A stretch of DNA of 64,000 nt, taken from contig CAVSIV010000001.1 in assembly GCA_963728205.1 (NCBI GenBank), forward strand, positions 512,001 to 576,000. The letters are read 5' to 3'. The translations under genes and the position numbers were made by a program. Below, piece after piece: positions 29,892 through 59,812 of this stretch (position 1 is the first letter of the stretch; each line of letters starts with the position of its first letter). The notes beneath the pieces are model-generated. The model had not been told where the DNA came from. It did no database searches and saw only the letters and a list, made by a program, of their open reading frames with translations. Source of the DNA: an uncultured Chloroflexia bacterium. GTDB lineage: Bacteria > Chloroflexota > Dehalococcoidia > UBA2979.

Positions 29892-29919
29892 TCGACCCCG
29901 GTCGCGGGGAGGGACGCGC

Positions 29920-32185: not shown

Positions 32186-32222
32186 TCGCCCCGGCGCGCC
32201 GCACGCGCGGGAGGAGCCGCTG

Positions 32223-35654: not shown

Positions 35655-35673
35655 TGTCGCGGGAGGTGCGCTC

Positions 35674-39882: not shown

Positions 39883-39967
39883 CCCCCTCGGCGCGGGAGG
39901 CGCGTGTGGCGCGTGTGGCGCGATCGATCACGCGACGGCGGACGGGCCGGGTGCGGGAGGTGGCCGC

Positions 39968-41736: not shown

Positions 41737-41775
41737 CTGCGCGCGGCGCGACGCGCGCGGCGAGGGGAGACGGCG

Positions 41776-42171: not shown

Positions 42172-42176
42172 GCAAG

Positions 42177-42656: not shown

Positions 42657-42678
42657 CGAGCGAGAAGAGGAGCCGCCC

Positions 42679-44451
42679 GTGAGCTTTCGACGTCGCACGT
42701 TCCCCGAGGTGCTCGATGGCGTCCTGACCAGCGTCGTGGGCGGCGTCGCCGGCGAGACGCATCCGTTCCCGCCGACGGTCGACGGGAGCGCGCCGTACCA
42801 GCAGCAGCTCGAGCAGCCCCCGGTCGCGCAGATCGTGTCGGTCTGGGGCGGCCGCGACGGCCAGCCGCACCAGTTCCGCGCGGGCAGCGACTTCGAGCTG
42901 GCCGAGGACCGCCAGACGCTGAGCTGGCTCGAGGGCGCCGAGTTGCCCGATCCCGGCACGCTGATCGTGGTGAACTACCTCCCCGCCTCCGCGCAGGCCG
43001 ATGTGACCGACCTCCAGCCCGGCAGCGTCGTCCGCACGCTCGCCGAGTCGATCGCGCTGGAGATCGCGCGCCTCTCCGCGCAGCTCGAGGGCGTCTACCG
43101 CGACGGCTTCATCGACACCGCGAGCGGATCGGCGCTGGACAAGGTCGTCGCGCTGCTCGGCGTCGAACGCGTGAGCGGCGGCCGCGCGAGCGGCGACGTG
43201 CGCTTCACGCGCGTCGCCGGCGGTCGCGGCGCGATCACGATCCCCGCCGGCACGCGCCTGATGACCGCCGACGGCGAGATCGAGTACGAGACCACCGAGG
43301 CCGTGACGATGGCCGACGGCCAGAACGCGATCCGCGTGAGCGCCCGGGACATCGAGGCCAACGACCCGCTGCCCGCCGACGCGCTGACGGTGCTGCCGGC
43401 CCCGATCAGCGGGATCGGGGGCGTGACGAACCCGGCTCCGACCGCGCTCTCGGCGCGCGACGAGACCGATGCCGAGCTGCGCACACGCGCGAAGAGCTTC
43501 CTGTTCGGCAGCGAGCGAGCGACGCTCGGCGCGCTGCGCCGCGCGGTCGCGTGGCAGCAGATCGCGGCCGACGTCGAGGAGCTGGCGTCCGAGCCGGGCC
43601 ACGTGCGCATCACGCCGCACGTGGACGTGCTCGCGCCGGAGGCGGAGCAGCGGCTGCTCACGGCGATCAACGACACCCGCCCCGCGGGTGTCGTCGTCGA
43701 GCTCGCCGGCGCCGTGCCGCCGAAGCGCGTCGATCTCGAGCTGCGCCTCACCACCGCCGACGGGCTCACCGAGCCGCAGCTGCGCGCGGCGCAGCGCGCG
43801 GTGCGGGCGAGCATCGAGCAGTACTTCGCCGGGCTCCCCGCGCGCGAGGACGCGAGCGTGAACCGCATCGTCGGCCTGGCGCTCGGCGTGCCGGAGGTGA
43901 GCGACCTGCGGCTGCTCAGCGTGACCGTCGACGGCGCCGACGTGCTCGACGTCGAGGCCGGCCGGATCACGATCTCCGGGTTCCCGACGGTGCTCGGCGC
44001 GCTGCGCATCGCCGACCCGGCCCTGCCCACCGTGGTGAACGTCGCGGTGACCTACCCACAGGGCGAGGCGCCGCCGGACCAGCCGTCAATCGAAGCGGCG
44101 CTCACCGCGATGCTCGACTACCTGGACACGCTCAACGCCGGCGAGCCGGCCGCGGACGCGACGCCGTCCGAGCTCGCGCGTCGCTCGATCGGCTTCGGCA
44201 AGGTGCTGTGGTCGCTGCCGCTGCCGAACCACCCCGCGCAGCCGCTCGCGGCGTACGACGACGCGGCGTCGCCGCCGGCGCTGCCCGACGAGACGGCGGT
44301 CGCGCCCTACGCCGTCACCGTCACGTTCAGCCAGGAGAGCGGCGTCAGCCAGGTGCTGCAGGCGGCGGGCGACCCGCCGTACGCGCTCACGCCGTTCGAA
44401 CGAGTGCTGCTCGGCGAGGTCGTGGTCGCCGCGGAGTCCGCCGGTGCCTGA
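42679..44451 (+). CDS. Baseplate J/gp47 family protein
   Basis: GSVVRTLAE, FIDTASG.ALD....LLGV.R, TIPAGT, VTNP and ETDAELRTR motifs; RPAGV. Confidence 0.92.
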   Translation: MSFRRRTFPEVLDGVLTSVVGGVAGETHPFPPTVDGSAPYQQQLEQPPVAQIVSVWGGRDGQPHQFRAGSDFELAEDRQTLSWLEGAELPDPGTLIVVNYLPASAQADVTDLQPGSVVRTLAESIALEIARLSAQLEGVYRDGFIDTASGSALDKVVALLGVERVSGGRASGDVRFTRVAGGRGAITIPAGTRLMTADGEIEYETTEAVTMADGQNAIRVSARDIEANDPLPADALTVLPAPISGIGGVTNPAPTALSARDETDAELRTRAKSFLFGSERATLGALRRAVAWQQIAADVEELASEPGHVRITPHVDVLAPEAEQRLLTAINDTRPAGVVVELAGAVPPKRVDLELRLTTADGLTEPQLRAAQRAVRASIEQYFAGLPAREDASVNRIVGLALGVPEVSDLRLLSVTVDGADVLDVEAGRITISGFPTVLGALRIADPALPTVVNVAVTYPQGEAPPDQPSIEAALTAMLDYLDTLNAGEPAADATPSELARRSIGFGKVLWSLPLPNHPAQPLAAYDDAASPPALPDETAVAPYAVTVTFSQESGVSQVLQAAGDPPYALTPFERVLLGEVVVAAESAGA

Positions 44452-47212
44452 GTACGAGGCGATCCGCGACCGCCTGCCGACGCTCTACCGTCCGCAGGAG
44501 GGCGATCCGGCGAGCGCCCGGCTGCCGCTGCGCGCCGCGGATCTCGCCGCCGTGAACGACGGCGCGCCGCCGGCAATCGCGGAGCGCGGCGACGGCTCGC
44601 TCGACCTCACGTTCGACGCGCCGACCGCGGTGCGCTCGCTCCGTTTCGCCGCCGGCGTCTCCCCCGGCACCGTCGTCACCGTCGAGTTGCGGCGCTTCCC
44701 CGCCGGCGTGCCCGCCGTGCTGCCGGCGGCGACCGCCCCGCTCGTGCGCCGCGTCGCCGGCTTCGCCGGCGACTTCGCCGATGCGCGCGTGAACGTCCGC
44801 CTCGTGCGGCCGGCGCTGTTCGAGACGTTCCTGCGCGGTGCCGCGCGTCCGCTCGACGAGCTCGGGCGCGAGGCCGCGGAGGTGATGCAGGCGCACTGGC
44901 TCGACTACGCCGACCGCGGCCTCTTCAGCCCGTACCTCGCGCGCGTCCACGAGCTCGCCGACGCCGCCCCGCCGGCCCGCGCCGACGCCGACGTCGTGAC
45001 GTTCCCGTTCCTCGACGACCTCCCCCGCCTCGGCTCGCTCATCCCGCTGCCCCCCTGGCGCGAGCCGCCCGCGAGCCGCGAGCGCGTCGAGGGGTACCGG
45101 CAGCGCATCCGTCGGATCGTCGCGCTCTACCGCCGCGGCGTCGGCACGCTGCCGGCCGTGCGCGCGATGGCGGAGGCGTCGCTCCCGGTCGACCTCACGG
45201 CGCCGGCGGGGCTGCGCGACCGCCCGCTCGGCGTCGAGGAGTTCGCGCCGCTCGTGCGCCGCGTGTTCCCCGCGCCGACGCGCGCGCAGCCCGACGCAAT
45301 CGTCGGTCCGCTGATGCGCTGGGCGATGACGAACGACGGCCTCGAGGCCGCGCCGCCCACGCTCTACGTCGAAGGCACGACGCCGGATTCCGGCGTCGAC
45401 CCGACGGCACGGCCGCTGCTCGAGCTCTTCAGCGCCGGCGGCAATCGCGTGCGGATCGGCATCGCCTACGAGGGCACGGTCGCGGCGGGGCAGGTGCTAC
45501 GCGTGCGGCCGGCGTACTCGTCGTGGCTGGCCGGCGACGGCGGGCTTGCCGTCGCGACCGCACTCCCCGCCGACGACGCGCCGGCGAGCCGTGCGGCGGC
45601 CGGGCCGTGGTCGGCCGCGCCCGGTGCGCCGGGCGGGCCCGTCACCGCGGTGCGCCAGGTCGCCAATCACAGCCTGTGGGCGGCGACCTTCGACGCCGGC
45701 GCCGGCACCGGCTCGCTGTGGCGCTTCGACGGGGCGACCTGGACCGAGGCGCTGCCCGGCCTGCCGGAGGTGCATGCCCTCGCCGCCGACGGCGACGACC
45801 TGCTCGTCGGCACGGCCTCGGGGCTGTTCCGGCTGCCGCTCTACCCGCCGGAAGGCGAGGCGTTCGCGCCGGCGCCAGCGCCCGGCGACCTCTCGGGGCC
45901 CGCCGTCCACGCGCTTCTCCGCGGCGCCGACGGCACCTGGTGGGTCGGGGCCGAGCAGGGTCTCGCGCGGCTCGGCGACGGCGACGTGCTCGACTGGTTC
46001 GGTCTCGGCGCCGTAGCCGAGACGGCCGTGCCCGTTTACGCGCTGTTCGAGGACGCGACGGGATCGCTCTACGTGGGAACGCAGCGCGGCCTGTTCGAGT
46101 ACCAGCCGTCACGCGGGCACTGGTACTGGTACGAGGGCCGCGAGCACAGCGAGAGCGCGCCGGACTGGCGTCCGTTCCGGCCCGAGGCGAGCGGCGACGA
46201 GCGCGGCTTCCCCGCGGAGGACGACGTCTTCCTGCCACCCGTGCGCGCCGTGCGCCGCGGACCCGACGCCGCGCTGTGGGTCGGCACCGACGCCGGCATC
46301 GCGCGCTACTACGCGCGGCCGGCGCGCGGCCTCGCCTACTCGACGTTGCTCGAGGCGTTCGCGGATCTCGCGGCGGGGCCGGTGACGGCGATCGAGGAGG
46401 ACGGCCGGCGCGGGCTCTGGTTCGCGACGACGCAGGGGCTGTTCCGGTACGACGGGCGCGACTTCTGGCAGGCGCAGTCCGGCGCCTTCGTGCGGCTGCC
46501 GCTCGGCAACGCGGTCGCCCCCGACCCGGAGGAGCCGCGCTTCTGGCGCTTCGATCGGGCCGGGGGGCACTGGCAGTCGCTCGACCCCGCGTCGCCGGGC
46601 GCGCTGTGGACCGCGTTCACCCCCGAGCCGCGGGGCACCGCCGAGCCCGCCGTGCGCGCGCTCGCCTGGACGGCCGGCGCCGCCGCCGATCTCGGCAGCT
46701 TCGACGGCGACGCGTTCACCTCGGACCCCGGGGCGACGCCGGCGGCGCTGCGAATGCGCTACAAGCCGACGGACGATCGCGTCGTCGACGGCGGCATCCC
46801 GGCGGTGCCGCTCCTCCCGGTGGGCGACTCCACCTGGCGCTACCTCGCGCTCGAGAGCACGTCCGACGCGGTGTCGCCGCGGCGCCCTGCGTGGACAATC
46901 GAGGGGCGGCTCCTCCCGCCGCCGGACGCGGCGCCGCCGCTCGAGGGCCGCTTTGGCCAGTCGCCGGCGGCGGAGTTCAGCGACTTCGACGACGCGGCGT
47001 TCGCGTTCCATCCGGCCGCCCGCGTGCGGTTCGAGTGGGAGGCGCGCCGGCCATTCACCGTCCTGGTGCGGCTGGGTCTGCTGGACGGGGAGGGGCAGAT
47101 CGCCCCCGCGGTGCTCGACCGCGTGTGGCAGGGCGTCGAGCAGGTGCGGCCGGCGGGCGTGCGCGCCCTGGTGGCAGTGGAAGACCGGCTGGTTCGAGGC
47201 GAAACCGGATAA
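44444..47212 (+). CDS. gpI-like baseplate wedge protein with inserted beta-propeller (putative receptor-binding)
   Basis: RLP.LYRP; YRQRIRRIV.LYRRG.GT...V; C-terminal VRPAGV; middle has repeated V.AL......LWVGT..GL blades. Confidence 0.7.
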   Translation: MPEYEAIRDRLPTLYRPQEGDPASARLPLRAADLAAVNDGAPPAIAERGDGSLDLTFDAPTAVRSLRFAAGVSPGTVVTVELRRFPAGVPAVLPAATAPLVRRVAGFAGDFADARVNVRLVRPALFETFLRGAARPLDELGREAAEVMQAHWLDYADRGLFSPYLARVHELADAAPPARADADVVTFPFLDDLPRLGSLIPLPPWREPPASRERVEGYRQRIRRIVALYRRGVGTLPAVRAMAEASLPVDLTAPAGLRDRPLGVEEFAPLVRRVFPAPTRAQPDAIVGPLMRWAMTNDGLEAAPPTLYVEGTTPDSGVDPTARPLLELFSAGGNRVRIGIAYEGTVAAGQVLRVRPAYSSWLAGDGGLAVATALPADDAPASRAAAGPWSAAPGAPGGPVTAVRQVANHSLWAATFDAGAGTGSLWRFDGATWTEALPGLPEVHALAADGDDLLVGTASGLFRLPLYPPEGEAFAPAPAPGDLSGPAVHALLRGADGTWWVGAEQGLARLGDGDVLDWFGLGAVAETAVPVYALFEDATGSLYVGTQRGLFEYQPSRGHWYWYEGREHSESAPDWRPFRPEASGDERGFPAEDDVFLPPVRAVRRGPDAALWVGTDAGIARYYARPARGLAYSTLLEAFADLAAGPVTAIEEDGRRGLWFATTQGLFRYDGRDFWQAQSGAFVRLPLGNAVAPDPEEPRFWRFDRAGGHWQSLDPASPGALWTAFTPEPRGTAEPAVRALAWTAGAAADLGSFDGDAFTSDPGATPAALRMRYKPTDDRVVDGGIPAVPLLPVGDSTWRYLALESTSDAVSPRRPAWTIEGRLLPPPDAAPPLEGRFGQSPAAEFSDFDDAAFAFHPAARVRFEWEARRPFTVLVRLGLLDGEGQIAPAVLDRVWQGVEQVRPAGVRALVAVEDRLVRGETG

Positions 47213-47231
47213 GCGAAGAAGAGGCGGAACC

Positions 47232-48764
47232 ATGGGAGCACTGGCAGACACGCTGGGCAACAGGGTCGCCGGCGACCTGATCCGGGCGGAAGACTGGAAC
47301 GCGCTGATCGCCGGCGTCGAAAACGCCGATCAGGCGCTGCAGACGCAGATCACCGACCTGGGGACACAGCTCGACACACGCATCGGCGCGGTCGAGGATC
47401 GCGTCACCGCGCTCGAGACGCAGGCGAGCCAGCTCGACGAGCGCGTGACCACCACGGAGGCGGCGCTCTCCACGCTCCAGGGCGTGGTCGACACGCTGCG
47501 CGGGCAGTTCCGGCGCGTGACGATGCAGACCGATCGGCTGCACTTCGCGATCGGCGAGATCGCGGAGATCACCGCCCGGATCACGGACCTCGGTGGGGCG
47601 CCCCTGACCTTCGCCGACGCCGCGACGCGGCCCTGGATCGACTTCGTCGCGGTCTGGGGGCAGCTCAAGCCGGTCCCCGGCTTCGAGGCGCTGGGCGGCG
47701 CCGGCGACCGCACGATCTCGGTGCGCGTCGACGCGAACGGGGTAGCCCGCGTGCGACTGCGCGCGGAGCACTCGCAAGGCCTCACGGACGAGGTCGAGAG
47801 CGAGGTGCAGACGTCGCTCGGCACGGTGCTGCAGAGCACGAACACGAGCATCGCGCAGACGATCCTCGCCGCGGCGACGCCGCAGGAGGCCGTCCAGCGC
47901 GGCGCCTTCCACGTCATCACCGGCGAGTACGATCGGACGGACGCGACGAGCGTGCGCACGTTCGCGGATGCCTATTACCTGCGCAATCCCATCGACATCT
48001 CCGGCAAGATCGCGCCGATCTTCCAGCACAGCTGGCAGGACTACCGCGCGACGGTGCTGGCGTTCGGGAAGAACGACAGCGACCCGCAGACGCCCGACGC
48101 GAGCATCGGGGTCTGCTCGATCCAGCTCACGTTCCGCGACTGGATCGGGCCGTGGCTGCACCTCGACTACATCAGCGGCGCCGACGCGCTCGCCGCCGGC
48201 TACGGGGCGCGGCTCGCCGGCCGGATCGACGGGGATCTCGCGGCCTCGGTGAGCCGCCTCAAGAGCGAGGTCGATGGGATCGTGCTGAACAAGGGCGTGA
48301 TCGCCAAGCAGCGCGACCTGCAGGCGATTCGCCACGCCGTCGGGCAGATGGAGGTCACGAACCCGCCGCCGTTCCTCAGCCGGCTGAAGGACTCGATGCG
48401 CGACGGCGTCGCGATGCAGCAGGTGCTGGAGTTCTCGCAGGCGACGTCGCTGGGCGACTCGGCCCCGACGACCGCGTTCAGCGCGTTCACCGACTCGTCG
48501 TCGCGGGTGGACACGCAGGCCGAGGCGGTGCGCACGGACCTGACGGGCTATGTGCAGAGCCAGGTGGCGGACGCGGAACAGCGGCTCCAGACCCACGTGG
48601 CGACGCAGCAGGAGACGCTGCGGCAGGACCTCCTGCGCACCGACGGACCGATCCTCGGCCTGCAGCGCTCGCTCGACGAGGTCTCGGGGCGCATCGGCGG
48701 CGTGCAGACCGCGCTGGACAAGAAGGCCGACATCACGATGATCGGCCGCTTCCTGCCCCAGTAA
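47232..48764 (+). CDS. Coiled-coil protein of the tail locus (paralog 1)
   Basis: V.AGDLIRAEDWN start, heptad repeats, then a domain shared with the next gene (VWGQL, D.NG.ARV.L, RDWIGPWL); GAGG RBS. Confidence 0.7.
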   Translation: MGALADTLGNRVAGDLIRAEDWNALIAGVENADQALQTQITDLGTQLDTRIGAVEDRVTALETQASQLDERVTTTEAALSTLQGVVDTLRGQFRRVTMQTDRLHFAIGEIAEITARITDLGGAPLTFADAATRPWIDFVAVWGQLKPVPGFEALGGAGDRTISVRVDANGVARVRLRAEHSQGLTDEVESEVQTSLGTVLQSTNTSIAQTILAAATPQEAVQRGAFHVITGEYDRTDATSVRTFADAYYLRNPIDISGKIAPIFQHSWQDYRATVLAFGKNDSDPQTPDASIGVCSIQLTFRDWIGPWLHLDYISGADALAAGYGARLAGRIDGDLAASVSRLKSEVDGIVLNKGVIAKQRDLQAIRHAVGQMEVTNPPPFLSRLKDSMRDGVAMQQVLEFSQATSLGDSAPTTAFSAFTDSSSRVDTQAEAVRTDLTGYVQSQVADAEQRLQTHVATQQETLRQDLLRTDGPILGLQRSLDEVSGRIGGVQTALDKKADITMIGRFLPQ

Positions 48765-48781
48765 CGGAGGAGGTGCCACCC

Positions 48782-50458
48782 GTGGCACGCATCTACCTGG
48801 AACCCGGCGACGTCGGCGCCGCGGACGCGCGCATGGTGCTCGACTTCCTCAACGCCGCGACGTCGGCGGAGGAGATCGCCGCCGCCGTGGAGCTGCCGAA
48901 CGAGCTCGACATCGGCGTCCGGCTCGCACAGCGGCTGCTCGACCGCCGCGCGCAGCTCGGCTCGTTCACGACGCTCCAGCAGGTGGCGGACGTCCCGCTG
49001 ATCGGCCCGGAGCGCTTCACCGAGATCGTGACCACGCTCTCCGCGGCGCGACTCCCCCAGGGCGACGTGCCGGCGAACATCGGCGACGAGCTCCGCGCGC
49101 TGCGCCGCGATCTCGACGCGCTCCGCGGCGCCGCCGCGGCGCAGCCGTCGCTCACGTTGGAGACGCTGCAGGCGGAGCCGTACCTCGGGCAATCCGTGAA
49201 CGTCGTCGCCCGTGCGACCGCGCCCGGCGGTGAGCAACCGCTGATCGGCGCGACCGTCGTCGTCGCGACGACCTGGGGCCGGCTGCGCGGCGTCGAGGGC
49301 GTCCAGCTCCGCGACGCGCAGTCGCTGCGGCTGCGCACCGGCGTCGACGGTGCCGCGCGCGCGATTCTCCTGCCGCCGACGTCGGAGGACCTCACGGGCG
49401 TGCAGCAGTCCACGCTCGAGGTCGCGCTGCAGGGCCTCGACCCGGCGGCCATGACCCCCGTCGGGACCCAGGCCGGCCTGCAGGCGCTCGCCGAGCGCTA
49501 CCGCCGCGGAGGCGACGCACCGTTCCGGCGCGCCGTGGACATCTACTTCCGCGACTTCGCCGGCCGCGCGAGCGAGCCGTTGAACGTCCGCGACGCACTC
49601 GCGGCGTGGGCCTACTTCCAGGGCACGCTCGTGGCCTATCTCCCCAGCGCGGAGGTCGAGTCCTCCGTGCAGGCGACGGCCGTCCGGCCGCTGTGGGTGC
49701 GCGACTGGCTCGCGCCGTGGCTCGAGGTCCTGCAGTCGCTCGCCCACGAGGCCGCCGGGCTCGACACCGAGCTGGTCGACCTCGTCCGCACACACATCGC
49801 GGACGAAGGCGCCGGCACGGTGCTCAGTCGCGTCTACGGCCGCATCCACGACTTCGTCGACGACCAGGCAGGCGTCGTCGGGCAGTTCGTCGGCCGCAAA
49901 GTGGCGGAGCGCTCGCTGACGACCGTGCTGGACGCGGGCCTCGCGGATGCCACGCGCGAGCAGCGCGTCGCCCTCTTCCCCGGCGCCGAAGCCGGGACCC
50001 GCCTCCTCGATACCGCGCCCACGTCGGTGCTCGCAGGAATCGGCGACGCGCGGGCGGATCTGCGCCGGGACATCCAGCCGCGCATCGACGCCGGGATCGC
50101 CGGGGTGCAGTCGTCGATCTCCTCCGTCCAGTCGCAGCTGACCGATCGCGTCGCCGCGATCGAGACGAGCGTGAGCGCGAAGGCGGACGCCTCCCGCGTC
50201 GCCGCGCTCGAGAGCGCGGACCAGGCGCGCGCGGCGACGATCGCGACGATCACGTCCCAGATCGGTGACATCCAGACCGCGCTCGGCGGCAAGATCGACG
50301 CCTCGCAGTTCGAGGCGTTCCAGTCGAGCACGCAGGATCAGTTCGCCTCGCTGCAGCAGACCACGTCGCAGCTGGACACCACGGTGGGCACCCTGAACAC
50401 GTCGTTGAGCGGGCTGAACACCAACGTCACGGATCTGCGCCGGAGCATCGGGCAGTGA
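48782..50458 (+). CDS. Helix-hairpin-helix (ComEA-like) + shared domain + coiled-coil protein (paralog 2)
   Basis: LNAATSAEEI...IGVRLAQRLLDRR...GSF..L..V..VP.IGP..F; TWGRL; RDWLAPWL; GGAGG RBS. Confidence 0.72.
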   Translation: MARIYLEPGDVGAADARMVLDFLNAATSAEEIAAAVELPNELDIGVRLAQRLLDRRAQLGSFTTLQQVADVPLIGPERFTEIVTTLSAARLPQGDVPANIGDELRALRRDLDALRGAAAAQPSLTLETLQAEPYLGQSVNVVARATAPGGEQPLIGATVVVATTWGRLRGVEGVQLRDAQSLRLRTGVDGAARAILLPPTSEDLTGVQQSTLEVALQGLDPAAMTPVGTQAGLQALAERYRRGGDAPFRRAVDIYFRDFAGRASEPLNVRDALAAWAYFQGTLVAYLPSAEVESSVQATAVRPLWVRDWLAPWLEVLQSLAHEAAGLDTELVDLVRTHIADEGAGTVLSRVYGRIHDFVDDQAGVVGQFVGRKVAERSLTTVLDAGLADATREQRVALFPGAEAGTRLLDTAPTSVLAGIGDARADLRRDIQPRIDAGIAGVQSSISSVQSQLTDRVAAIETSVSAKADASRVAALESADQARAATIATITSQIGDIQTALGGKIDASQFEAFQSSTQDQFASLQQTTSQLDTTVGTLNTSLSGLNTNVTDLRRSIGQ

Positions 50459-52269
50459 ACGTCGACGCCGTCGCGAGCACGCCGGGCGCCGGCGCCGGGC
50501 CGCTCACCGCGCGGACGCTGCTCACCCCCGCCGGCGCCGCGCCGCGCGTCGTGTACCGCGACGTCTCGTACGTGCGGCTGGCGCCGGGTGCGCTCGCCGG
50601 GTCGCTCGCGCTGGACGCGGCCGCATGTGCCCTCGGCGGCGCCTTCACCAGCTACGACTTCGACGCGCTCGCGATCGCGGAGCCGACGCTGCAAGCCTCG
50701 ACGCGCAGCCTCGGCGGAGGCACGGTCGCGGTGGAGCTCGGCGCGCCGCGTCGCCTCCGTTCGATCCAGGTCGCTCACGGCAAGGTGCCGTCGACCGGGT
50801 ACACGCTCGAGGTCTACCGGCTCGACGGCGACACGCCGTCCGGCCAGCCGACCACGACCGCGACGAACGCGATCGAGACCGCCAACGTGGTCGGCGAGGC
50901 CGTCGTCGTCGGAGGTGCGGGCGGGGGCGACGTCGTGGCCGGGGCGACGGAGAACGCATACGTGCTCGAGGCCCGCCGCACCTTCTGGGTGGACTTCACC
51001 GATGCGCGCTTCGCGCTGCGGCTGAAGCAGCCCGGCGGGGGCTACGTCACGAGCCTTGCGCCCGGCGACGTCGACGTCGTCTCCGTGCGCAGCTACCCGT
51101 CGTCCCCGCGCGTGCGCGTCGCGTTCCCGCAGGACCCGGCCTCGCCGGTGGGCGACCCGACGGCCGCAGTTCCGGTGTGGCAGGCGGCCGGGGAGATTGG
51201 CGGCGCAGTGCCGGCGACCGCGGGCACCTTCGACGCCGCAGACGCGCTCGCCGACGCACTGGCGCGTGGCGCGGCCCGGCTGGCGGATGCCGTGCAAGCG
51301 TCGGCGTCGGCGGCGTCCCCGGTGCCGCCGCTCCCGCCGACGATCGACGTCGCGCTGGTGATCGAGTCCGACGCCCCCTGTCGCTTCCAGCCGGCGGGGT
51401 TCGCGGTCGCCTACCGCCCGGTGACGAGTGCATTCGCGAGCGGCGAGGAGAAGGCGACCGTGCGCTTCGCCGGCGCGGGCGCGGCGGCGAGCGCGCCGAG
51501 CGTGCGGCTCCCGGGCGGGGCGACCGTGGTGTCGGCCGAGCTGCGCGCGACGCCGAGCCTGCGCACCGGGCGGCCCGGCGGGGTCGACGCCGCGGCGGCA
51601 TCCGCGCCGCCCACGAGCCGCGCCGGCATCCGTGTCGGCGCCGGCCGGCAGGCGGCGCAGGTCGTGCAGCCCGACGCGGCGCTCGAGGCAACGGGGTTCC
51701 TCCTCGGCGTCATCCCGCTCGACGACGGCGTCGAGTTGCACGCCGCGCTCGTCGAGGACGCCGGCGGGGCGCCGGCCGGCCGCGTCCTCGCGGAGGGGAC
51801 GCTCGCGACGGGCGTGCCCGGGCGGCCGGCATGGCTGAGCTGGCGCCTCGACGCGCCGCTCGTCGTCACGACCGCGCGCCACTGGGTGCGGCTCGCGGCG
51901 GCCAGCGGAGAGGCGGTCTGGTTGAGCGCCGCCGGCTCCGGCCCGGCGTGCGCGCTGGCCGATGACGGCTCGACGCTCGCCACGCTCACGGACCGCGACC
52001 TGATGGTGCTCCCGGTCGTCGGCGCCGGAGCGAACGGCGGCCCGCCCGGCGACGCGGCGCCACGCCTGGACGTCGCGGGCATGTCCGTCAGCGCGAGCGC
52101 CGGCGCGGACGGCCGCCTGGTCTACGACCTGGCCGCCGCGTTGACTGCCGCGCTCACGGGGCAGCCGCCCGGCGCGGTCGTGGAGGTACCGCTGTCGTTC
52201 GCCTCGCCGGCGCCGGGTTCGCTCACGGTCTACCCGCCGCGAATCGAGTTCGAGCCAGCGACCGCGTGA
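50455..52269 (+). CDS. Hypothetical beta-rich protein of the tail locus
   Basis: GTGA overlap with the upstream gene; GC3-biased frame; no recognised motif. Confidence 0.65.
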   Translation: MNVDAVASTPGAGAGPLTARTLLTPAGAAPRVVYRDVSYVRLAPGALAGSLALDAAACALGGAFTSYDFDALAIAEPTLQASTRSLGGGTVAVELGAPRRLRSIQVAHGKVPSTGYTLEVYRLDGDTPSGQPTTTATNAIETANVVGEAVVVGGAGGGDVVAGATENAYVLEARRTFWVDFTDARFALRLKQPGGGYVTSLAPGDVDVVSVRSYPSSPRVRVAFPQDPASPVGDPTAAVPVWQAAGEIGGAVPATAGTFDAADALADALARGAARLADAVQASASAASPVPPLPPTIDVALVIESDAPCRFQPAGFAVAYRPVTSAFASGEEKATVRFAGAGAAASAPSVRLPGGATVVSAELRATPSLRTGRPGGVDAAAASAPPTSRAGIRVGAGRQAAQVVQPDAALEATGFLLGVIPLDDGVELHAALVEDAGGAPAGRVLAEGTLATGVPGRPAWLSWRLDAPLVVTTARHWVRLAAASGEAVWLSAAGSGPACALADDGSTLATLTDRDLMVLPVVGAGANGGPPGDAAPRLDVAGMSVSASAGADGRLVYDLAAALTAALTGQPPGAVVEVPLSFASPAPGSLTVYPPRIEFEPATA

Positions 52270-52311
52270 TCACGCGGGGCCCGCGAGCCCCGCCGGATGA
52301 GGAGTCGCAGG

Positions 52312-53172
52312 ATGCCCGATGGATGGATGCCCGGCGTGGAGCATCTCCCGAACCCGGCGCACGGCTACGCGTCGCTCCCCGACGGGAGCATGCGCCCGAT
52401 CGCGATCGTCAACCACATCATGCAGGGCTTCAAACGCACCATCGATCGCGAGGTGCGGGCGGGAATCGCCGAGCTCTCCGAGCACTTCTCGATCGATCGC
52501 GACGGGAACATCACGCAGTACGTCGACATCTTCAGCGGGGCCTACCACGCCGGCCGTCTCGACCCCGGCGCGCCTCCGACCTGGCCCCGCTATCGGCCGA
52601 ACACGAACCCGAACCTCTACACCGTCGGCATCGAGCACGAGGGGTTCGCGGTGCAGCCGCTGTCGTACAAAGCCGACTACGTGTACACCGAGCAGCGCCC
52701 GTGGCCGGAGCCGATGGTGCTCGCGACGATCCGCGTCCAGCGATGGATCTTCGACACGCTCGGCGCGGCGGGAATGCCGCAGGAGCCGAGCCACCTGACG
52801 GTCATCGGGCACAATGAGATCGCGCCGATCTCACGGTTCTCGGACCCCGGTCCCCTGTGGCCGCGCGACCGGATCATCACGGCGCTGAAGCCGCAGGCGG
52901 TCGTCTCGCCGATGCCGTCGTTCACCGAGCTGGTGTACATCCGCGCGCTCGCGCAGTTCCTCGGATGGGAGAAGTTCGACTGCCAGCCGGTGCCCTGCGC
53001 GCGCGAGGCTCGCACCTACCACCTGACGTTCGAGGCGCCCGACCCGCCCGATCAGCAGCACGCGGATCTCGAGCGCCAGTACCTGCAGGCGCTCGGCTTC
53101 CAGTTCCACTACACGCGGATGCGCGTGAGCCCGCTGGAAGGGCGCCGCGGATACGAGCTCGACATCACGTAA
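52312..53172 (+). CDS. N-acetylmuramoyl-L-alanine amidase (Amidase_2)
   Basis: IVNH, HFSI..DG.I.Q.V, AYHAG, N..TVGIEHEG and VIGH.EI.....DPG motifs; AGGAG RBS. Confidence 0.88.
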   Translation: MPDGWMPGVEHLPNPAHGYASLPDGSMRPIAIVNHIMQGFKRTIDREVRAGIAELSEHFSIDRDGNITQYVDIFSGAYHAGRLDPGAPPTWPRYRPNTNPNLYTVGIEHEGFAVQPLSYKADYVYTEQRPWPEPMVLATIRVQRWIFDTLGAAGMPQEPSHLTVIGHNEIAPISRFSDPGPLWPRDRIITALKPQAVVSPMPSFTELVYIRALAQFLGWEKFDCQPVPCAREARTYHLTFEAPDPPDQQHADLERQYLQALGFQFHYTRMRVSPLEGRRGYELDIT

Positions 53173-53274: not shown

Positions 53275-56200
53275 ATGCCCTACATCACGCTGGGACGCGA
53301 GGTCGTGCGCGGCACGATCTCGCGCGATCACTGGCGCGCCGACGTCACCCTGATGTGCTCCGACCGCTTCCCGGCCGGCGCCGCCGCGCGCCTCTTCGTC
53401 GAGATCCGCTGGCGCGCCCGCCGCGACGAGGGCGACGTCCCGGGGCTCCCGGAGGACGCGAAGCCGATCGTGCTCACGCTGCGCAAGCGCACGGCCGCCG
53501 CGACGGGGGACGTCCGGTTCGACGCCCGCGACGGGGCGACCACCCGCGGGTTCGTCGGCGACACCCGCGCGCTGCTCACGCTCTTCGCGCAGGCTCCCAC
53601 GAGCGGCGCAGAGCCCGACGTCGTGCTCGAGGTGCGCATCGAGGGCGACGTGGCCGGGAGCGTCCCGCTCTCGGTCGACGGCGGTGCCGCCGCGCCGGCG
53701 ACCGCCGTCGTCCTCCACGACGACACCGGCGCGGCGCCGGCGCACGACATCGTGCTGCACGAGGCGACCGTCGCGCTGCGCGCGGCGGCCGCGCCGGTCG
53801 CGCCGGGCGCCTTCCGCTGGGTGAGCGTGCGGCCGGACGCGCTCCCGCTCAGCGGCGGGCCGGAGGGCGAGCGGGTCGAGGTGCGCGGCGCGCTCGTGAG
53901 CGACGCCGTGGGCGACGCGCCGGTCTGCGTGCTGTTCACCCCTCGCGACGGCGGTCCGGCCGTGATGGCCGTCCACGCGGTCACCGTCGCGGAGACGCGG
54001 GTGCTTCTGGGCGACAGCGGCGAGGTGCCCGCGCCCGACCTGATCGGGGTCGGCGCCGGCGAGACCTTCCGCGCCGTGACGCGGCCGCCCGCGCTGGCGC
54101 AGGCGGTGTCGTGGCGCTTCGCCGCCGGGGCCGAGCGCACCCGCGTCGCCGGGCGCTCCGACCTTGCCGCCGCGCGGATCGAGGGGGTCCGCGCGAGCGC
54201 GGCCATGCACGACGTGCAGGCCGTCGCGACGATCGCGACGGGGCACGTGCCGGCGTCGCTCGCCGTGACGCATGACCTCACGGTGACGTCGGTGGTCGTG
54301 GTGCGCGCGGACGGGAGCGGGCTACCGGCGTTCGTGAACCTCGGGGAGACGGTGCCGGTGCTGGCGCGCGTCACGCCCGACGCGCTCGCTCGCGATGTCG
54401 CCTGGGCGGTGGTGCCGGGGCTCGGGAGCGCGGCCCGGGCGCGCGTGCAGCCCGTCGCGGGCGCGGACCGCGCGCGCAGCGCCGAGCTCGCGCCTGCGGC
54501 GTCCAGCGCCATCGACGCTCGCGACGACATCCGCCTCACTGCCGGCCTCGCCGGCGCCGACGGCGCGACGGTGGCGTCGACGGTCGTGTCCCACCCGTTC
54601 ACCGTGACGCTCGTCCGGCCGCTGCATCTCGCGGTGCCGCCGGCCGACCTCGCGACGTGGACGCTCCAGCAGGCGTACGGCCCGGGGACCGCCGGGGCGG
54701 CGTTCCACGACCGCGCGCTGTTGCGCACGACGGGTGCCGGGCGCGTCATCGCCGCCGCCGACGGGACGCTCTCGACGCATCCGCCCGGGGTCGGCGTGGC
54801 CGCGCCGCCCGACCCGGCGACGCCGGCCGGGCCGCCGCCGCCGGCGGTAACCCTCTACCTGCACCTGGCGCCGGCGATCCGGGACCGCGCCACCGGTTTC
54901 CACGCCCGCGCGGCGGGCCTCAACGGCGTCGCCGGCTTCGTGTACGACCACCTCGAGACGGCGTCGCTCGAGGCGGCGCTCGGCGATCTGCTCGACCGCG
55001 CCGAGGGCCCGGTCGCCGGGCTGGGCCGCGCGGAGCGCGTCGCGCTCCTGGTCGCCGGGCAGGCGACGGTCCCCGTCACGGGTGGCCACGCACTCGGTGC
55101 CGCCTCGCCGGACGGCGCCCCGGCCGGCCGCCGCGATCTCGGTCTGGGCGTGCTCGCCGACGACGGCGCCATCGACCCCGCGTTCGCGTACGACTGGATG
55201 CGCGACTTCGTCGCCGACGGCCAGCCTGCCGTGGACGCCTTTCTCGCCCTTGTGCCGCGCGGGTGGCCCGTCATTGACCCAACGCTCACGGTCGACCACG
55301 CGATCGACCTCACCGGCGACGCGCTCTACCCGATGGCCGTGCTCGCCGACCTCCGCCGGCGGTACGCGCTTACGACCGCGCAGTGGCGCACCGTCGGCGA
55401 CAATCAGAAGGCGCTCTGGCGGCGTCGGCTGCTGCGTCGCGCCGGGTTCGCGCCGGCCGGGGACACCGCGCCGCCGTTCGAGTTCGACGATCGCGACTGG
55501 CAGAACCTGTTTCAGCTGGAGGCGCTCGTCGAGTTCTACGTGAACTTCGACGACCCGCATCGGCCGCCGCCCCTCGTGGCCGGGGAGAACGAGCCGCGCC
55601 CCCCGCTGGAGGCTGACGGCGTGACGCCGACCCCGGGGTACCGGGCCATCGACCTCACCGGGGGCTGGCACATCGTCGTCGTCGACGCCTTCGGCGGGCG
55701 GCTGGCGGGCGCCGCGGCGACCGTCGCCGGCTCCGTCGTCACGCTCGACGGCGCGCCGGATCTCCGGCGCGTCAATCCCGGGTTCGACACCATCTACCTG
55801 CCGGGCGACCACGAGCGGCCGGGCGCAACCTACCGGGTCGCCGCCGCGAACCACGCCGCGTCGACGGTCACCGTCGACGGCGCCCCCGACTTCGCCGGCG
55901 GCACGTCGGCGTGGCACCTCCCGGCCGGCGTGAGCGGCGAGCTCCCCGCGCTCGCGTACAACCTCGGCCCGGGCGGGGCGCGAGGGTTCGACCACTACGA
56001 CGCGGCGCTCTTCGTCGTGAAGGACGGCGCCGTTCACGCGAAGTTCCGCTGGTCGAGCTACACGTCGCGCAACTACGCCGCCGGCAGCCAGCTCCTCTCG
56101 TCGCTGCGCGGCAACCGGCAGTACGACTTCGCGAGCTTCCGGTCGAACAGCGCCTTCATCAACTACGCGTTCAGCGTCGTCGACCACGGCGCCGCGTACG

Positions 56201-56604
56201 ACGGGGTGCGCGAGGCGCGCTTCTACTTCGCGACCCCGGTCACGGCCGACGCGGCCGCGCCGGGCGCGAATCCGAACGGCGGCGGCAAGACGCTGATCCG
56301 CATTCACAACGGCAACCACGGCAACCTCGCGCCCGGCGCGGCCGCGGCCGGCGGGACGGGATCGGCCGGGTGCATCGTGTCGCCGTCGTTCTACGACTTT
56401 CGCGACGTGATGATCACGCTCTTCCAGGCGGACCGGGTTGCCGCCGCCGGTGCGCCGGATCCGCACGTCGCGCAGCTGCAGGGCGCGGGCTCGGTGGCGA
56501 GCGGGGCACTGCTCGCCGCGAACACCGTCACCGCCGCGCAGTGGAACAACCGGCTCACCGGATCGTTCTGGGCGATCCGGCCGGACGAGCGGCCGCTCGG
56601 ATAG
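53275..56604 (+). CDS. Putative CIS cargo/accessory protein A: shared N-terminal module, Ig-like repeats, C-terminal YkuD/Tlde1-like domain
   Basis: N-terminus homologous to the 56707 gene; C-terminal LIRIHNG...GSAGCIV matches the L,D-transpeptidase H...S.GC motif. Confidence 0.65.
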   Translation: MPYITLGREVVRGTISRDHWRADVTLMCSDRFPAGAAARLFVEIRWRARRDEGDVPGLPEDAKPIVLTLRKRTAAATGDVRFDARDGATTRGFVGDTRALLTLFAQAPTSGAEPDVVLEVRIEGDVAGSVPLSVDGGAAAPATAVVLHDDTGAAPAHDIVLHEATVALRAAAAPVAPGAFRWVSVRPDALPLSGGPEGERVEVRGALVSDAVGDAPVCVLFTPRDGGPAVMAVHAVTVAETRVLLGDSGEVPAPDLIGVGAGETFRAVTRPPALAQAVSWRFAAGAERTRVAGRSDLAAARIEGVRASAAMHDVQAVATIATGHVPASLAVTHDLTVTSVVVVRADGSGLPAFVNLGETVPVLARVTPDALARDVAWAVVPGLGSAARARVQPVAGADRARSAELAPAASSAIDARDDIRLTAGLAGADGATVASTVVSHPFTVTLVRPLHLAVPPADLATWTLQQAYGPGTAGAAFHDRALLRTTGAGRVIAAADGTLSTHPPGVGVAAPPDPATPAGPPPPAVTLYLHLAPAIRDRATGFHARAAGLNGVAGFVYDHLETASLEAALGDLLDRAEGPVAGLGRAERVALLVAGQATVPVTGGHALGAASPDGAPAGRRDLGLGVLADDGAIDPAFAYDWMRDFVADGQPAVDAFLALVPRGWPVIDPTLTVDHAIDLTGDALYPMAVLADLRRRYALTTAQWRTVGDNQKALWRRRLLRRAGFAPAGDTAPPFEFDDRDWQNLFQLEALVEFYVNFDDPHRPPPLVAGENEPRPPLEADGVTPTPGYRAIDLTGGWHIVVVDAFGGRLAGAAATVAGSVVTLDGAPDLRRVNPGFDTIYLPGDHERPGATYRVAAANHAASTVTVDGAPDFAGGTSAWHLPAGVSGELPALAYNLGPGGARGFDHYDAALFVVKDGAVHAKFRWSSYTSRNYAAGSQLLSSLRGNRQYDFASFRSNSAFINYAFSVVDHGAAYDGVREARFYFATPVTADAAAPGANPNGGGKTLIRIHNGNHGNLAPGAAAAGGTGSAGCIVSPSFYDFRDVMITLFQADRVAAAGAPDPHVAQLQGAGSVASGALLAANTVTAAQWNNRLTGSFWAIRPDERPLG

Positions 56605-56706
56605 CCGGCCGCGCCTCGGCGCGCGTGCGCCGGGCCACGCGACGCCCGGGCGCGGCTATCCTGTGCCGAGGCCGGTCGTGATCCAGTGCAGGGTGAGGAG
56701 CGCGAC

Positions 56707-59700
56707 GTGGCCTACCGTCCGCACGCCGGCAGGAAGATCGTGCGGACGACGCTGACCCGCGACGACTGGGTCGCCAGCGTGACGCTCGCCTGCTCCGATC
56801 GCATTGCGGTCGGCGCGTCGTCGCCGCTCTTCGTCGAGGTGGCGTACCGCCACGAGCCCGCGCCGGGCGCCGACAGCGGCCACCCGGTCGATCTCACGTT
56901 CCGCTCGCTCGCCGCGGGCGGGGGCGAGATCCGGTTCGACGCCGCCGACGGCCCGACGACGCGACGCTTCGTCCGGCATGTCCGCACGGTGCTCACGCTC
57001 GTGGGCGTGACCGCCACCGCCGGCGCCGAGGCCGGCGTTGCGATCGATATCGCGATCGACGGGACCGTGAAGGAGAGCGTCCCCCTGTTCGTCGGCGCGC
57101 CGCTCGGCACGCTCGCGATCCGGGCCGCCGACGGCACGGCCGACGCGCCCGCGGAGGTCACGCTCGGCCAGACGCTGCCGCTGCGCGCCGTGCCCGACCC
57201 CGCCGCGCAGGGGACGTATCGCTGGATCGTCGTGACCGAGGACTCGCTCGCGGCCCACGGCGCGACCGACGCGGCCGCCGTCGTGCTCGGCGTGACCGGC
57301 GGCGCCGCGCTGCCCCGCACGGTGGGCTGCCTGTTCTCCCCGCCCGACGACGGTCCGCAGGTGTTCACGGTGCGCGCATTCGGCGTCCGCGCGACGCTGC
57401 TCGTCCGCACCCGCCTCGTCGGCACCGCCCCGGCACCGCTGGACGACGCCTGGGTGTACGTCCGCGACGGCGGCACGACCGTCGTGCTGCACACCGACCG
57501 CCGCGGCCGCGCGCGCTCCGCGCCCACCGGTTCCGAGCGCGCGGCGTCGTGGCTCTATACCGAGCCCTTCGGCGCGACCGCCGGCCACCCCGTGGAGATT
57601 GCCTTCAGCCGCGGCCGGAAGCCGATTCCCGACACACTCGTGCAGGCCGAGCTCGCGTTCCGGCGGCTCGACGTCGCGGCGGAAACCGCCGACGGCGACC
57701 TGGTCGGCGCGGTCACGATCCCGGAGACGCCGCTCGCGTTGACCCGACCGGGCGAGCTCACGATCTGGCCGTTGCTGCGCGAGCTGCCCGTGGACGCCTC
57801 GCTCACCGCCGGCCTCAACCAGGGCGCGGCGCTCTACGACGCGCACGGCAACCTCACGGAGCCCGAGGGCACGGTGGCGGCGCCGCCGCCGGCGAGGCCG
57901 CGCGAACGCGGGCTGGTCGTGGCGGGCACGGTCGATGCCGGCGCGACCGGCGCGCGCGTCCGGCTGATGCGCGACGACGGCACCGCGCTGCCGCTGCACG
58001 CCGGGTTCGCCGCCGCCGCGTCGGTGCTGGAGCTGCCCGCGACGATGGGCGCTCCGGCCGGGGCGACGCGGCCGTTCTCGGCGCTCATCGTGCTCGACGA
58101 CGCGGCCGCCGCATTCGGGCCGGTGCTGATCGTGGTGGACACCGTCGGGATCGCCCCGCCGCGCGTCGACGCCTTCGCGGTCCAGCTCTGCGGCGTGCAG
58201 CTCGCACTCGTCGACGACGCCGTCGCCGCCGCCGACGGCACACACGCCGGCCCGGTCCCCGGCGAGCCCGACGAGCTGAACACGATCGACTTCGGCCTGT
58301 CGCCGCAGGACAACCGCAACGACCTCACGCTCCAGGCGCGCGCGCGGCGCATGGTGAACTACGACATCCGCACGGGGACGCGCGCGTTCGACGAGACGGC
58401 GGCCGTCGGCCCCGGCAACCCGAACGTGCCAAAGCCGCAGATGCCGCTGTGGATGGGCGAGTGCCAGCTCGTCGGGATCGGGTGGGCGGATCTGCAATCG
58501 CTGATGCGCCACCGCGTGGCCTGGGTCAGCCGTGCGCCCGCGTGGTCGACGCTGGAGCTCAATCTCTCATGGCGGATCGAGCTGCGCTGGGACGGACCCG
58601 ACGTCAACTCGCCCACGTTCGCCGGACCGCCAGAGCTCATCCTGCGGTCGGGGCAGACCTACCAGTACAGCCTCGCGCTCGGCGGCGATGCGGCGCTCCG
58701 GGTTCCGTTCGACGCGCAGGGACGCCCTCTCGACGCCACCGGGGCGCCGCAGGCGCTGGATCACGGGGCGGTGCCGGCGCCGTTCACCGCCGCCCCGGCG
58801 CGCATCGCGTACCCGGTTGCCGCGCGACGGCTGCCGCGCCTCGTCGTGCAGGGCGAGCAGCGTGCGTGGGGACGGCAGGCCGGCGCCCCCCGGCGGGACT
58901 CCGTGATCGTCGAGTTCCAGCCCCGCGTCGAGGCCGGCGGCAGCGAGGCGATCCGCGGCGGAGATGGGGATCTCGCGCTGCAGAGCCTGCAGATCGATGG
59001 CGCCGCCGCCCCGCCGGGGCTCGAGCCGGACGGCGGCGGGGCGCCGGTCGCGCCCGCGGACGTGCGGCCGGCGCGCGTGCCGACGTTTCGCGTGCGCGGC
59101 ACCAACCCGGCGGCGCACGCCGCGGTCGAGCAGCTGATCGACGCGCTCGTGCGCCAGTACCACGACGCGCACGCTGCCGAGGCGCGCATCGCCACGCTCC
59201 CGCTCGCCGTCTGGCAGGAGACGGTGCGGCTGATCCTCGCGCACGAGAACGGCAACGACCGCCAGTTCTTCGACAACGCGAGCGGCCGCTACGCGTTCGC
59301 GTCGCGCGGCACGACCTTCTACTACGGGCACGAGCACCGCATGCCGTTGTTCGGCCCGCCGCACGGCTACGGGTTCGGGCAGCTCGACTTCGTGTTCGGC
59401 CGCGCCGCGAACGACGACGAGGTCTGGAGCTTCGTCGAGAACATCCAATCCGCGGTGCGGGTCGTGATGGAGGAGAAGGCCGCGGCCGCCTACCACGACA
59501 TGCACGGGCACTTCGCCGCGCCGGTCTCGCGGCGCGACCGGGCCGCGTACCGCCGCGAGGTCGTGCGGCGCTACAACGGCGGCACGGAGTTCCACTGGAA
59601 CGGCGCGGACTGGGAGATCCAGCCGGGCCTCGCGCAGTGGGCCAACGCGCACGATCACACGCAGGGGCCGAACCAGCGGCTGCGATACCCGCGACCGCGT

Positions 59701-59812
59701 GCTCGGCACCCACGTCGCCTACTACAACCCGTATCCGGCCGGCGCGGGGGCGGCGACGACGTTTCCGTGGCCGATCGCGTTCGCGGTCGGCCAGTTCGGC
59801 CCGGGGATCTGA
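56707..59812 (+). CDS. Putative CIS cargo/accessory protein B: shared N-terminal module, C-terminal lysozyme-like domain; apparent +1 frameshift near 59691
   Basis: ILAHE...QF, GYGFGQL, W....NI..A and RRYNGG lysozyme/SLT-like motifs; the corrected frame reads YP/DRVLGTHVAYYNPY...FGPGI* with stop at 59810-12, just before a convergent gene. Confidence 0.65.

Follow-up and report, generated by a model that had tools for sequence, protein, structure and literature searches.

Genes A and B lie side by side at the end of a run of contractile-tail genes in an uncultured Chloroflexia bacterium and encode long proteins that begin alike and end differently, and they raise the question of whether such proteins belong to the tail-like machine encoded beside them and, if so, in what capacity. 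The window, i.e. the whole stretch of 64,000 nucleotides analysed here (contig CAVSIV010000001.1, positions 512,001 to 576,000 of the forward strand), has a G+C content of 74%, and codon-position G+C, read at the third position (GC3), marks a run of genes on the + strand from about 27.2 kb to about 59.8 kb that includes A and B (Table 1). An earlier reading of the same DNA, hereafter the original prediction, proposed that the two proteins share an N-terminal module that loads them onto or attaches them to a contractile injection system (CIS), and that their C-terminal parts attack peptidoglycan. The present analysis leads to the view that A and B are probably particle-borne enzymes of a headless contractile-tail machine, docked via a two-domain module (D1–D2) and equipped with exchangeable heads that would attack the target envelope.

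The N-termini of A and B are homologous. BLASTP of the N-terminal pieces gives 99 identities over 238 residues (42%) with an E-value (E) of 4e-39, while composition-adjusted BLASTP of the whole proteins leaves this alignment unreported and places its best match, at E 0.072, elsewhere. Past residue 240 or so the two proteins show no alignment, and both the shared start of about 230 residues and the divergence behind it are as originally described. An AlphaFold2 model of the module, computed as a monomer from a 68-row alignment, has a pLDDT of 95.8 and a pTM of 0.91 and consists of two beta-sandwiches, namely D1 with a length of about 135 amino acids (aa) and D2 with about 100 aa. Judged by its modelled fold, D2 is an ordinary Big_2-type immunoglobulin-like (Ig-like) domain. 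Its best fold match is 7quz (Big_2-CBM56) with Z 9.3, an rmsd of 2.9, 84 aligned residues and 23% identity, the Ig domain of the lambda tail tube (2l04) is matched at Z 7.6 with 26% identity, and many phage Ig-like domains of tail tubes and capsids lie at Z 7.6–8.9. Pfam gives no Big_2 match for D2, and its membership of the Big_2 type rests on the fold. D1 has no match in Pfam (even at E 10), NCBIfam, PHROG or the sequences of the PDB, and conserved catalytic-looking residues are absent from D1 across the 68-row alignment. These comparisons suggest that D1 is the family-specific part of the module and that it belongs to no named family, in agreement with the original prediction. That prediction had also stated that a match of the module to a generic Ig or Big domain found mostly outside CIS loci would speak against it; D2 is such a generic domain, and D1 matches no Ig/Big family in Pfam.

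A profile built from five modules and searched against 1.84 billion representative proteins yields 93 matches at E ≤ 1e-3, 70 at E ≤ 1e-10 and 48 at E ≤ 1e-30. When the profile is split at residue 137 and the two parts are searched separately in 94 proteins, D1 is present in 74 of them, and 74 of its 75 matches begin within 12 residues of the N-terminus. The sole internal D1 is a second copy near residue 1508 of P0018 (1666 aa), which may represent two tandem D1 genes called as one, arranged like A and B. Nineteen proteins have D2 but no D1, often with D2 repeated internally, and the number of proteins with D1 and without D2 is also 19. None of the 74 D1 proteins has a 12-residue stretch with a hydrophobicity above 2.0 in its first 40 residues, and residue 3 of the AlphaFold model already lies in the first strand of D1, in agreement with the earlier statement that A and B carry no signal peptide.

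Scans with the module profile reveal eight loci in species genomes (Gemmatimonas/Gemmatimonadota, four cyanobacterial lineages and metagenome-assembled genomes of Chloroflexi) and three further loci in metagenomes, and no relative of the module is found in IMG/VR. The neighbouring genes were scanned at seven loci (L007, L009, L010, L011, L014, L036 and L037); L008 and L038 have no usable context and stand outside this count. The D1 gene is located inside the same type of contractile-tail cluster at all seven. At L007, L011 and L014 it is directly followed by the genes for hub, spike, PAAR, gp25, Baseplate J and a Reg_prop protein, and at L009 and L036 a single gene of 1259 or 1264 aa separates it from the hub gene, so that the hub–spike–PAAR–gp25–Baseplate J series lies downstream of the D1 gene in five of the seven scanned loci. 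A giant gene for a protein with NHL repeats is found directly upstream of the D1 gene at L007, L010, L014 and L037, and at L012 and L013, which lie outside the neighbour scan, a long open reading frame (ORF) ends at the start of D1. The usual slot of the D1 gene in these relatives is between the tape-measure-like or NHL giant genes and the hub–spike–PAAR genes. The gene order of the cluster in the window recurs at L007, L009, L011, L014 and L036, and L036 also has two tandem D1 genes (940 and 483 aa), as in the window. The link of the module to CIS genes thus stands for D1, which lies in such a cluster at all seven scanned loci and is not found in IMG/VR, and does not extend to D2, a generic Ig domain that also occurs in proteins lacking D1.

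The machine itself, judged by its gene content, is a headless contractile tail and not a canonical extracellular contractile injection system (eCIS) of the Afp/PVC type. The markers of the Afp/PVC type given in PMC8213781 are an AAA ATPase, a DUF4255 terminator, DUF4157 and a gp19-type tube together with sheath and baseplate. A Pfam scan of the cluster ORFs at E ≤ 0.01 finds none of AAA ATPase, DUF4255, DUF4157 and gp19-type tube, and neither A and B nor the 30 ORFs of the window that were scanned match PF13699 (DUF4157/eCIS_core). The sheath is remotely like solved ones (best E 1e-4; Afp3, 3e-3; tCIS, 0.09), and Baseplate J is likewise remote from solved structures. The CIS setting of the original prediction is borne out by the contractile-injection genes that adjoin A and B and has to be amended in that the system is not a canonical eCIS. 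Phage head genes are absent from 27 kb upstream and 4 kb downstream of the cluster, and the capsid family PF05065 has no match in the source genome and four related genomes; together with the lack of relatives in IMG/VR, this leads us to reject a prophage. In the accessible part of the literature on contractile injection with NHL repeats or in Gemmatimonadota, no account of this cluster type was found. A further injection system of canonical type, or effectors of such a system, may be encoded in the source genome (G000), as two eCIS_core (DUF4157, PF13699) matches are located on its contig C6 at 160875–161105 and 1816062–1816256, one of them in a 797-aa open frame.

Table 1. Positions of the genes, domains and other features in the window.
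Feature	Position	Strand	Description and basis
Contractile-tail (CIS) structural cluster	27176..52269	+	Pfam matches
Sheath	28287-29375	+	Pfam
Tube-sized ORFs	29385-29891 and 29920-30402	+	Position and size in the cluster
Tape-measure-like protein	32223-35654	+	1143-aa coiled-coil protein; tape-measure position
NHL-repeat giant	35623-39882	+	1419 aa; Pfam
Hub+spike fusion	39904-41736	+	Pfam
PAAR	41776-42171	+	Pfam
gp25	42174-42656	+	Pfam
Baseplate J	42679-44451	+	Pfam
Reg_prop protein	44444-47212	+	922 aa; Pfam
Three coiled-coil-rich ORFs	up to 52269	+	Cluster scan
Amidase_2 gene	52297..53172	+	N-acetylmuramoyl-L-alanine amidase without D1, directly upstream of A; Pfam PF01510, E 4.8e-15
Gene A	53275..56604	+	ATG start 53275, 1109 aa; D1, D2, further Ig-like region, conserved middle region, C-terminal Cys/His domain; ORF and GC3 frame
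D1 of A (aa 1-137)	53275..53685	+	Family-specific all-beta N-terminal domain; local hidden Markov model (HMM) aa 1-134, E 8e-71; pLDDT 96-98
D2 of A (aa 138-243)	53686..54003	+	Big_2-type Ig-like domain, by fold
C-terminal domain of A (last 259 aa)	55825..56601	+	His 56305-56307, Ser-x-Gly-Cys (Cys 56371-56373); probable YkuD-like L,D-peptidase
Gene B	56707..59812	+	D1, D2, middle part without known family, SLT/lysozyme-like C-terminus; about 1035 aa across one frame break
D1 (aa 3-130) and D2 (aa 132-230) of B	56707..57396	+	Local HMMs: D1 E 9e-58, D2 E 2e-40
C-terminal domain of B	59026..59688	+	H-E-N 59242-59250, G-F-G-Q 59371-59382, Y-N-G-G 59572-59583; probable lytic transglycosylase/lysozyme-like
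Frame break in B	59691..59692	+	One base more than in relatives; GC3 phase shift, orthologue tails in +1 frame

The heads behind the module are diverse. A Pfam scan of 68 representatives assigns five proteins to PG_binding_1, five to Amidase_3, four to a PETase-like (esterase-like) family, two to NHL (P0009 and P0038, which are D1 proteins with NHL repeats) and one to PLD; CarboxypepD_reg is found in four proteins, and Rieske and Big_6 in one each. The PETase-like match of the D1 protein of L037 lies above the cut-off of Pfam. Clustering of the last 250 residues of the 44 members with at least 500 aa, A and B included, produces 11 clusters, so that one conserved N-terminal part is combined with many unrelated C-terminal heads, as in polymorphic effectors. 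The HMM search proposed in the original prediction, with a tally of C-terminal partners and of linkage to tail genes, has in this way given the 93 representatives, the 11 head clusters and the contractile-tail linkage at all seven scanned loci. In a maximum-likelihood tree of D1, whose 135 columns are those of a short domain with weak deep forks, the 11 head types require 19 changes (minimum 10; shuffled mean 22.3). Well-supported sister pairs carry different heads and show that the heads have been swapped repeatedly on the module: P0050 with an amidase head is a well-supported sister of P0045 with a B-type head, P0038 with NHL repeats is that of P0049 with an amidase, and P0069 (920-type) and P0065 (PLD) form a well-supported pair with very short branches. 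The polymorphic-effector design of the original prediction is supported by the scatter of at least 11 head types over the D1 tree, and the cognate immunity gene that would complete it is missing.

The largest head cluster has 21 members and comprises the 920-aa type of the cyanobacterial clusters, examples of which are found at L014 (10001–12763), L011 (117–2882) and L036 (7115–9937) and in 15 database proteins. In this type a His within V-H-A-N-E and, some 50 residues further on, an Arg-Gly-Cys are invariant, suggesting that its head is another Cys/His enzyme; a search with its profile finds nothing among PDB sequences or, at E 1, in Pfam. At the Chloroflexi locus L010 (9394–10224), the gene for a short D1 protein (316 aa) precedes a 96-aa ORF and, after that, a Peptidase_M14 zinc carboxypeptidase gene (E 6e-42), and the enzyme head may be encoded there as a separate gene.

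The head of A is quite likely to have a YkuD-like fold. It has nine shorter homologues, all unnamed, and His, Ser and Cys are invariant in all ten sequences and Gly in nine. The L,D-transpeptidase motif given in PMC9638812 is HXX14-17-(S/T)HGCh, and A comes near to it, and to Tlde1a, an L,D-carboxypeptidase/transpeptidase effector of the Salmonella type VI secretion system (T6SS), with a His and a Ser-x-Gly-Cys-hydrophobic sequence. The spacing from His to Cys is 14–16 in nine of the ten homologous sequences and 22 in A. In an unbiased fold comparison of the A-head model, itself a poor one, with 48,161 chains, L,D-transpeptidase folds occupy ranks 1–14, 16, 17 and 20, i.e. 17 of the top 20, at Z 5.3–3.4 with 95–131 aligned residues; they include LdtA 7aj9 (Z 5.3, rmsd 3.6, 117 aligned) and, at rank 5, the T6SS effector Tlde1a 7uma (Z 4.6). 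Several results point the other way. These Z values are low, the AlphaFold model has a pLDDT of 54.7 and a pTM of 0.60, and Foldseek with the same model returns nothing (best E 2.5). The second His of the canonical motif, which precedes Gly-Cys, is Ala in A and variable in the homologues. Pfam gives no match, whether the whole protein is scanned at E 0.01 or the fragment at E 10, a PDB profile search with the head finds nothing, and a six-frame genome search with PF03734 detects two other genes and not A. A profile–profile comparison with five local YkuD domains reaches E 0.14 and aligns just eight columns around the Cys. The language-model neighbours of the head are unnamed clusters alone (scores ≤ 0.82), and among 401 genomes of the phylum the head is found in the genome of the window and as one weak match at E 7e-4. 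The original assignment to a YkuD/Tlde1-like domain thus has its support in the conserved motif and in a weak fold ranking on a poor model, and finds no backing in the HMM, profile and Foldseek searches.

The head of B is probably a lytic transglycosylase or a lysozyme-like enzyme, as judged by its motifs. SLT-type lytic transglycosylases have a series of motifs consisting of a Glu-Ser-like motif, then G-x-x-Q and then Y-N-x-G, and the order of the motifs in the head of B agrees with this series. Together with 18 shorter homologues, it has H-E-[NSA] in 12 of 12 sequences, G-x-G-Q in 18 of 19 (the Gln in 19 of 19) and Y-N-G in all 18 sequences that cover the position. Among the named language-model neighbours of the head, 24 of 30 are SLT (PF01464) clusters with a score of 0.93, goose-type lysozyme included, which serves as a lead only. 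The assignment is opposed by the lack of a Pfam match for the head, by a PDB profile search that finds nothing, by a six-frame genome search with PF01464 that hits five other places and not B, and by a profile–profile comparison with 12 local SLT domains in which just 11 columns around the Glu align at E 0.25. The lysozyme-like end of B proposed earlier accordingly keeps the support of its motifs and language-model neighbours and has none from HMM or profile–profile searches.

These observations lead to a plausible hypothesis about the role of the module. Because D1 has a strict N-terminal position and occurs in one cluster type across phyla, and because its proteins lack an export signal and freely exchange their heads, D1–D2 fits a docking module, a function read here from genomics alone. 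The beta-sandwich D1 at the start of the protein, together with the Ig-like D2, would fix a long multi-domain protein to the particle. Since the usual gene slot follows the tape-measure-like/NHL genes and precedes the hub–spike–PAAR genes, the tip end of the tube or baseplate is the candidate site, and the hub/spike/tape-measure end of the baseplate would be the likeliest one. Upon sheath contraction, the exchangeable C-terminal head would act on the target envelope: in A, a Cys/His peptidase head of L,D-transpeptidase type (YkuD/Tlde1-like) would cleave the peptide stems or link them anew, and in B, a Glu-dependent SLT/lysozyme-like head would cut glycan. The slot of the D1 gene in the relatives fits a tail-associated lysin, which would open the wall for the tube, as well as loaded cargo.

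Other observations weigh against this hypothesis. A and B themselves lie off the conserved slot, at the 3′ end of the cluster after an amidase gene. Foldseek of the module against the PDB and viral models returns generic tandem-Ig matches alone (TM-score ≤ 0.40), and in the fold searches D2 dominated the match lists, so that D1 was barely probed alone. A recognisable head domain is absent from the Pfam scan of 48 of the 68 family members, and three of the five Amidase_3 matches and three of the four PETase matches fall below Pfam's own cut-off. For A, B and a third D1 protein of the same genome, paralogue C (470 aa), searches of Pfam, PHROGs, NCBIfam and PDB sequences and profiles give no result. 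Paralogue C is encoded on contig C2 (locus L039, 5695–10765 on the − strand, with its partner gene) among metabolic and regulator genes and far from injection genes. Wall-targeting T6SS effectors come with immunity genes, and no immunity-like gene, that is, no small co-oriented ORF among the window ORFs, is seen beside A and B.

Comparisons with known systems place D1 among N-terminal marks of this kind and set it apart from each of them. DUF4157/eCIS_core (PF13699) is, like D1, N-terminal and specific to injection loci and precedes long linkers and toxin domains that vary at the C-terminus, and the DUF4157 domain is reported (PMC13277306) to contact the spike complex. Whereas DUF4157 is HExxH metallopeptidase-like, D1 is an all-beta sandwich without a conserved catalytic signature; A and B lack PF13699, the two PF13699 matches of the genome lie on another contig, and the cluster has no Afp/PVC-type markers. 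MIX, FIX and RIX mark the N-termini of T6SS cargo effectors that are polymorphic, exchange their C-terminal toxins and are loaded on the spike, but these domains differ from D1 in belonging to a membrane-anchored T6SS machine and in their unrelated sequence. The head of A, for its part, departs from Tlde1a and YkuD in the missing PF03734 match, the replaced second His, the poor model and the low Z. Phage tail-associated lysins, such as the T4 gp5 lysozyme and the tail lysins that Gram-positive myophages encode after the tape measure gene, are wall-cutting enzymes in the tail tip that are encoded near tape-measure or hub genes, and they combine a structural N-terminal part with a variable lytic part, as the D1 proteins would. 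Their lytic domain is usually within a spike, hub or tape-measure protein, whereas here it would belong to a separate D1-tagged protein in a cluster without head genes.

The main rival of the docked-enzyme hypothesis, which we regard as unlikely, is that A and B are fibre-like proteins or peripheral components of the baseplate, that D1–D2 is an anchor like the eBAPs of eCIS tail fibres, and that the C-termini bind or depolymerise the target surface without being delivered. A conserved N-terminal anchor with a variable C-terminus is the plan of 3445 eCIS fibres with five anchor domains, and eBAP1–5 are conserved N-terminal domains of about 50–200 aa by which the variable C-terminal parts are tethered to the particle, according to PMC12923769. 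Ig-like domains and NHL propellers are common on structural and receptor-binding proteins of phages, and the nearest fold matches of D2 include phage tail and capsid decoration domains. The presence of at least one D1 gene in all five other cluster-bearing genomes (with 1, 2, 1, 1 and 1 D1 matches) also suits a fixed component. The position of the D1 gene in the relatives argues otherwise, because it lies between the tape-measure-like/NHL genes and the hub gene and not after the wedge genes, the usual place of fibres. In addition, the model of the module, which has very high confidence, is a monomer built of two globular sandwiches and in this differs from intertwined trimeric anchors, and whereas the eBAPs are described on fibres with receptor-binding ends, the D1 proteins occupy another cluster position and appear to have enzyme heads, with amidase, peptidoglycan-binding repeats and PLD being enzyme or effector head types. 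A direct comparison with the anchors covered eBAP4 and eBAP5. D1 has no Pfam match and so is not eBAP5 (DUF6519), and the module profile matches no PDB chain at E ≤ 0.9, the tCIS entry 7b5h, which holds eBAP4 as the start of the tCIS crown protein, included; 7b5h is also not among the fold matches listed.

A lysis set is a weak and much less probable alternative. At its 3′ end the cluster has an Amidase_2 gene with A and B behind it, the two proteins probably attack peptidoglycan and no immunity gene adjoins them, as would be expected if the three genes together freed the particles from the wall of the producer, as in tailocins, and the module were unrelated to the particle. This explanation does not account for proteins of more than 1000 aa with several Ig-like domains or for the placement of the D1 gene within the structural block of all seven scanned relatives, no holin-like gene was noticed, and NHL, PLD and esterase-like heads are unsuited to lysis. 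That the module is a generic pair of Ig-like spacers on surface or secreted enzymes and its link to injection genes a small-sample effect is hardly credible, since, even though both halves are beta-sandwiches with generic tandem-Ig matches in Foldseek and paralogue C sits among ordinary genes, D1 is N-terminal in all but one of its matches, no member has a signal peptide, the linkage holds at every scanned locus in three phyla and two metagenomes, and the 1225-aa partner encoded downstream of C is 49–50% identical to the product of the gene after the D1 gene inside the L009 and L036 clusters.

The docked-enzyme hypothesis can be extended. It is possible, albeit tentatively, that D1 is the loading tag of a contractile injection machine, so far uncharacterised, that passes from phylum to phylum (Gemmatimonadota, cyanobacteria, Chloroflexi and the lineage of the window), and that anything placed behind D1–D2 is mounted at the hub/spike end and delivered. 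If so, the tag would be nature's means of equipping the machine with heads that cut walls, cut lipids or do other work, and D1 could be used to find new effectors as well as to reprogramme what the machine delivers. Effectors of contractile injection are hard to recognise, and few share a mark; the known marks are DUF4157 in Afp/PVC-type systems and MIX, FIX and RIX in T6SS. To these, D1 would add one for a separate lineage of headless contractile tails, which is unstudied and has core proteins strikingly conserved across phyla, and it points to at least 11 head types, most of them without a known family, among which is a widespread type with invariant His and Arg-Gly-Cys. The polymorphic design is already known, and what is new is the D1 domain, the contractile-tail lineage and the position of the gene. 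The family is rare, with 74 clusters at 50% identity among the 1.84 billion proteins, which limits its reach, yet the D1 proteins make the arming of a tail-like machine open to a clean test.

The distribution of the cluster bears on its movement between phyla. In the order to which the window belongs, D1 is found in one of 99 genomes and the tape-measure-like protein also in one of 99, and the genome is the same. Between phyla (window 41056–42171 compared with L007, L009, L011, L014 and L036), PAAR is 74–76% and the spike 50–64% identical, while the identity of the D1–D2 module is lower at about 25–57%. Because these core parts are unusually conserved and the cluster is so restricted within the order, the sequences suggest a transfer of the whole cluster between phyla. 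Two components of the cluster are worth recording. The NHL giant of about 1400 aa, which is kept at L007, L010, L014 and L037, is an unusual component for a contractile tail. A 399-aa ORF (30389–31588), flanked by the tube-sized genes on one side and the tape-measure-like gene on the other, has codon-position G+C values of 0.82/0.78/0.89 and no family match, and L036 has a 381-aa ORF at the same place.

The product of A is identical to the database protein P0003 (1109 aa) and has P0004 and P0046 as orthologues. The ORF of B, whose orthologues are P0045 (1037 aa) and P0029 (996 aa), opens at GTG 56686, and a second GTG at 56707 sits behind a GAGGAG box; because of this box and the family pattern of M, five residues and GR, the second GTG is taken as the start. 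The distance from the stop of A to the start of B is 102 nt, and a convergent gene ends 22 nt past B. The third-position G+C signal quits the frame of B at about 59690 and shifts to the +1 frame. The orthologues P0045 and P0029 end in ...LRYPNHVLGT...FPWPIAF...GP, and B reads ...LRYP in frame 0 and then ...RVLGTH...FPWPIAF...GPGI-stop in frame +1. The contigs of close relatives (95–98% alike; three sequencing runs from three studies) are each one base shorter at 59691 or 59692, which indicates that B carries one extra base, 40 codons before its natural stop, and that the natural protein has about 1035 aa. The end of B at 59812 given by the original prediction holds in that the stop codon TGA exists at 59810–59812, and needs the qualification that this codon lies in the +1 frame after the break. 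The extra base is an assembly error or a strain mutation, and an assembly indel error is likely; no sequencing run covers the stretch whole, the best share being 0.16. A programmed frameshift is rejected, as the three related metagenome contigs are simply one base shorter there. Two overlapping ORFs with matches to effector-associated domain 10 (EAD10) at 59835–60768 on the − strand converge on the end of B, and their 86-base overlap may be another frame error.

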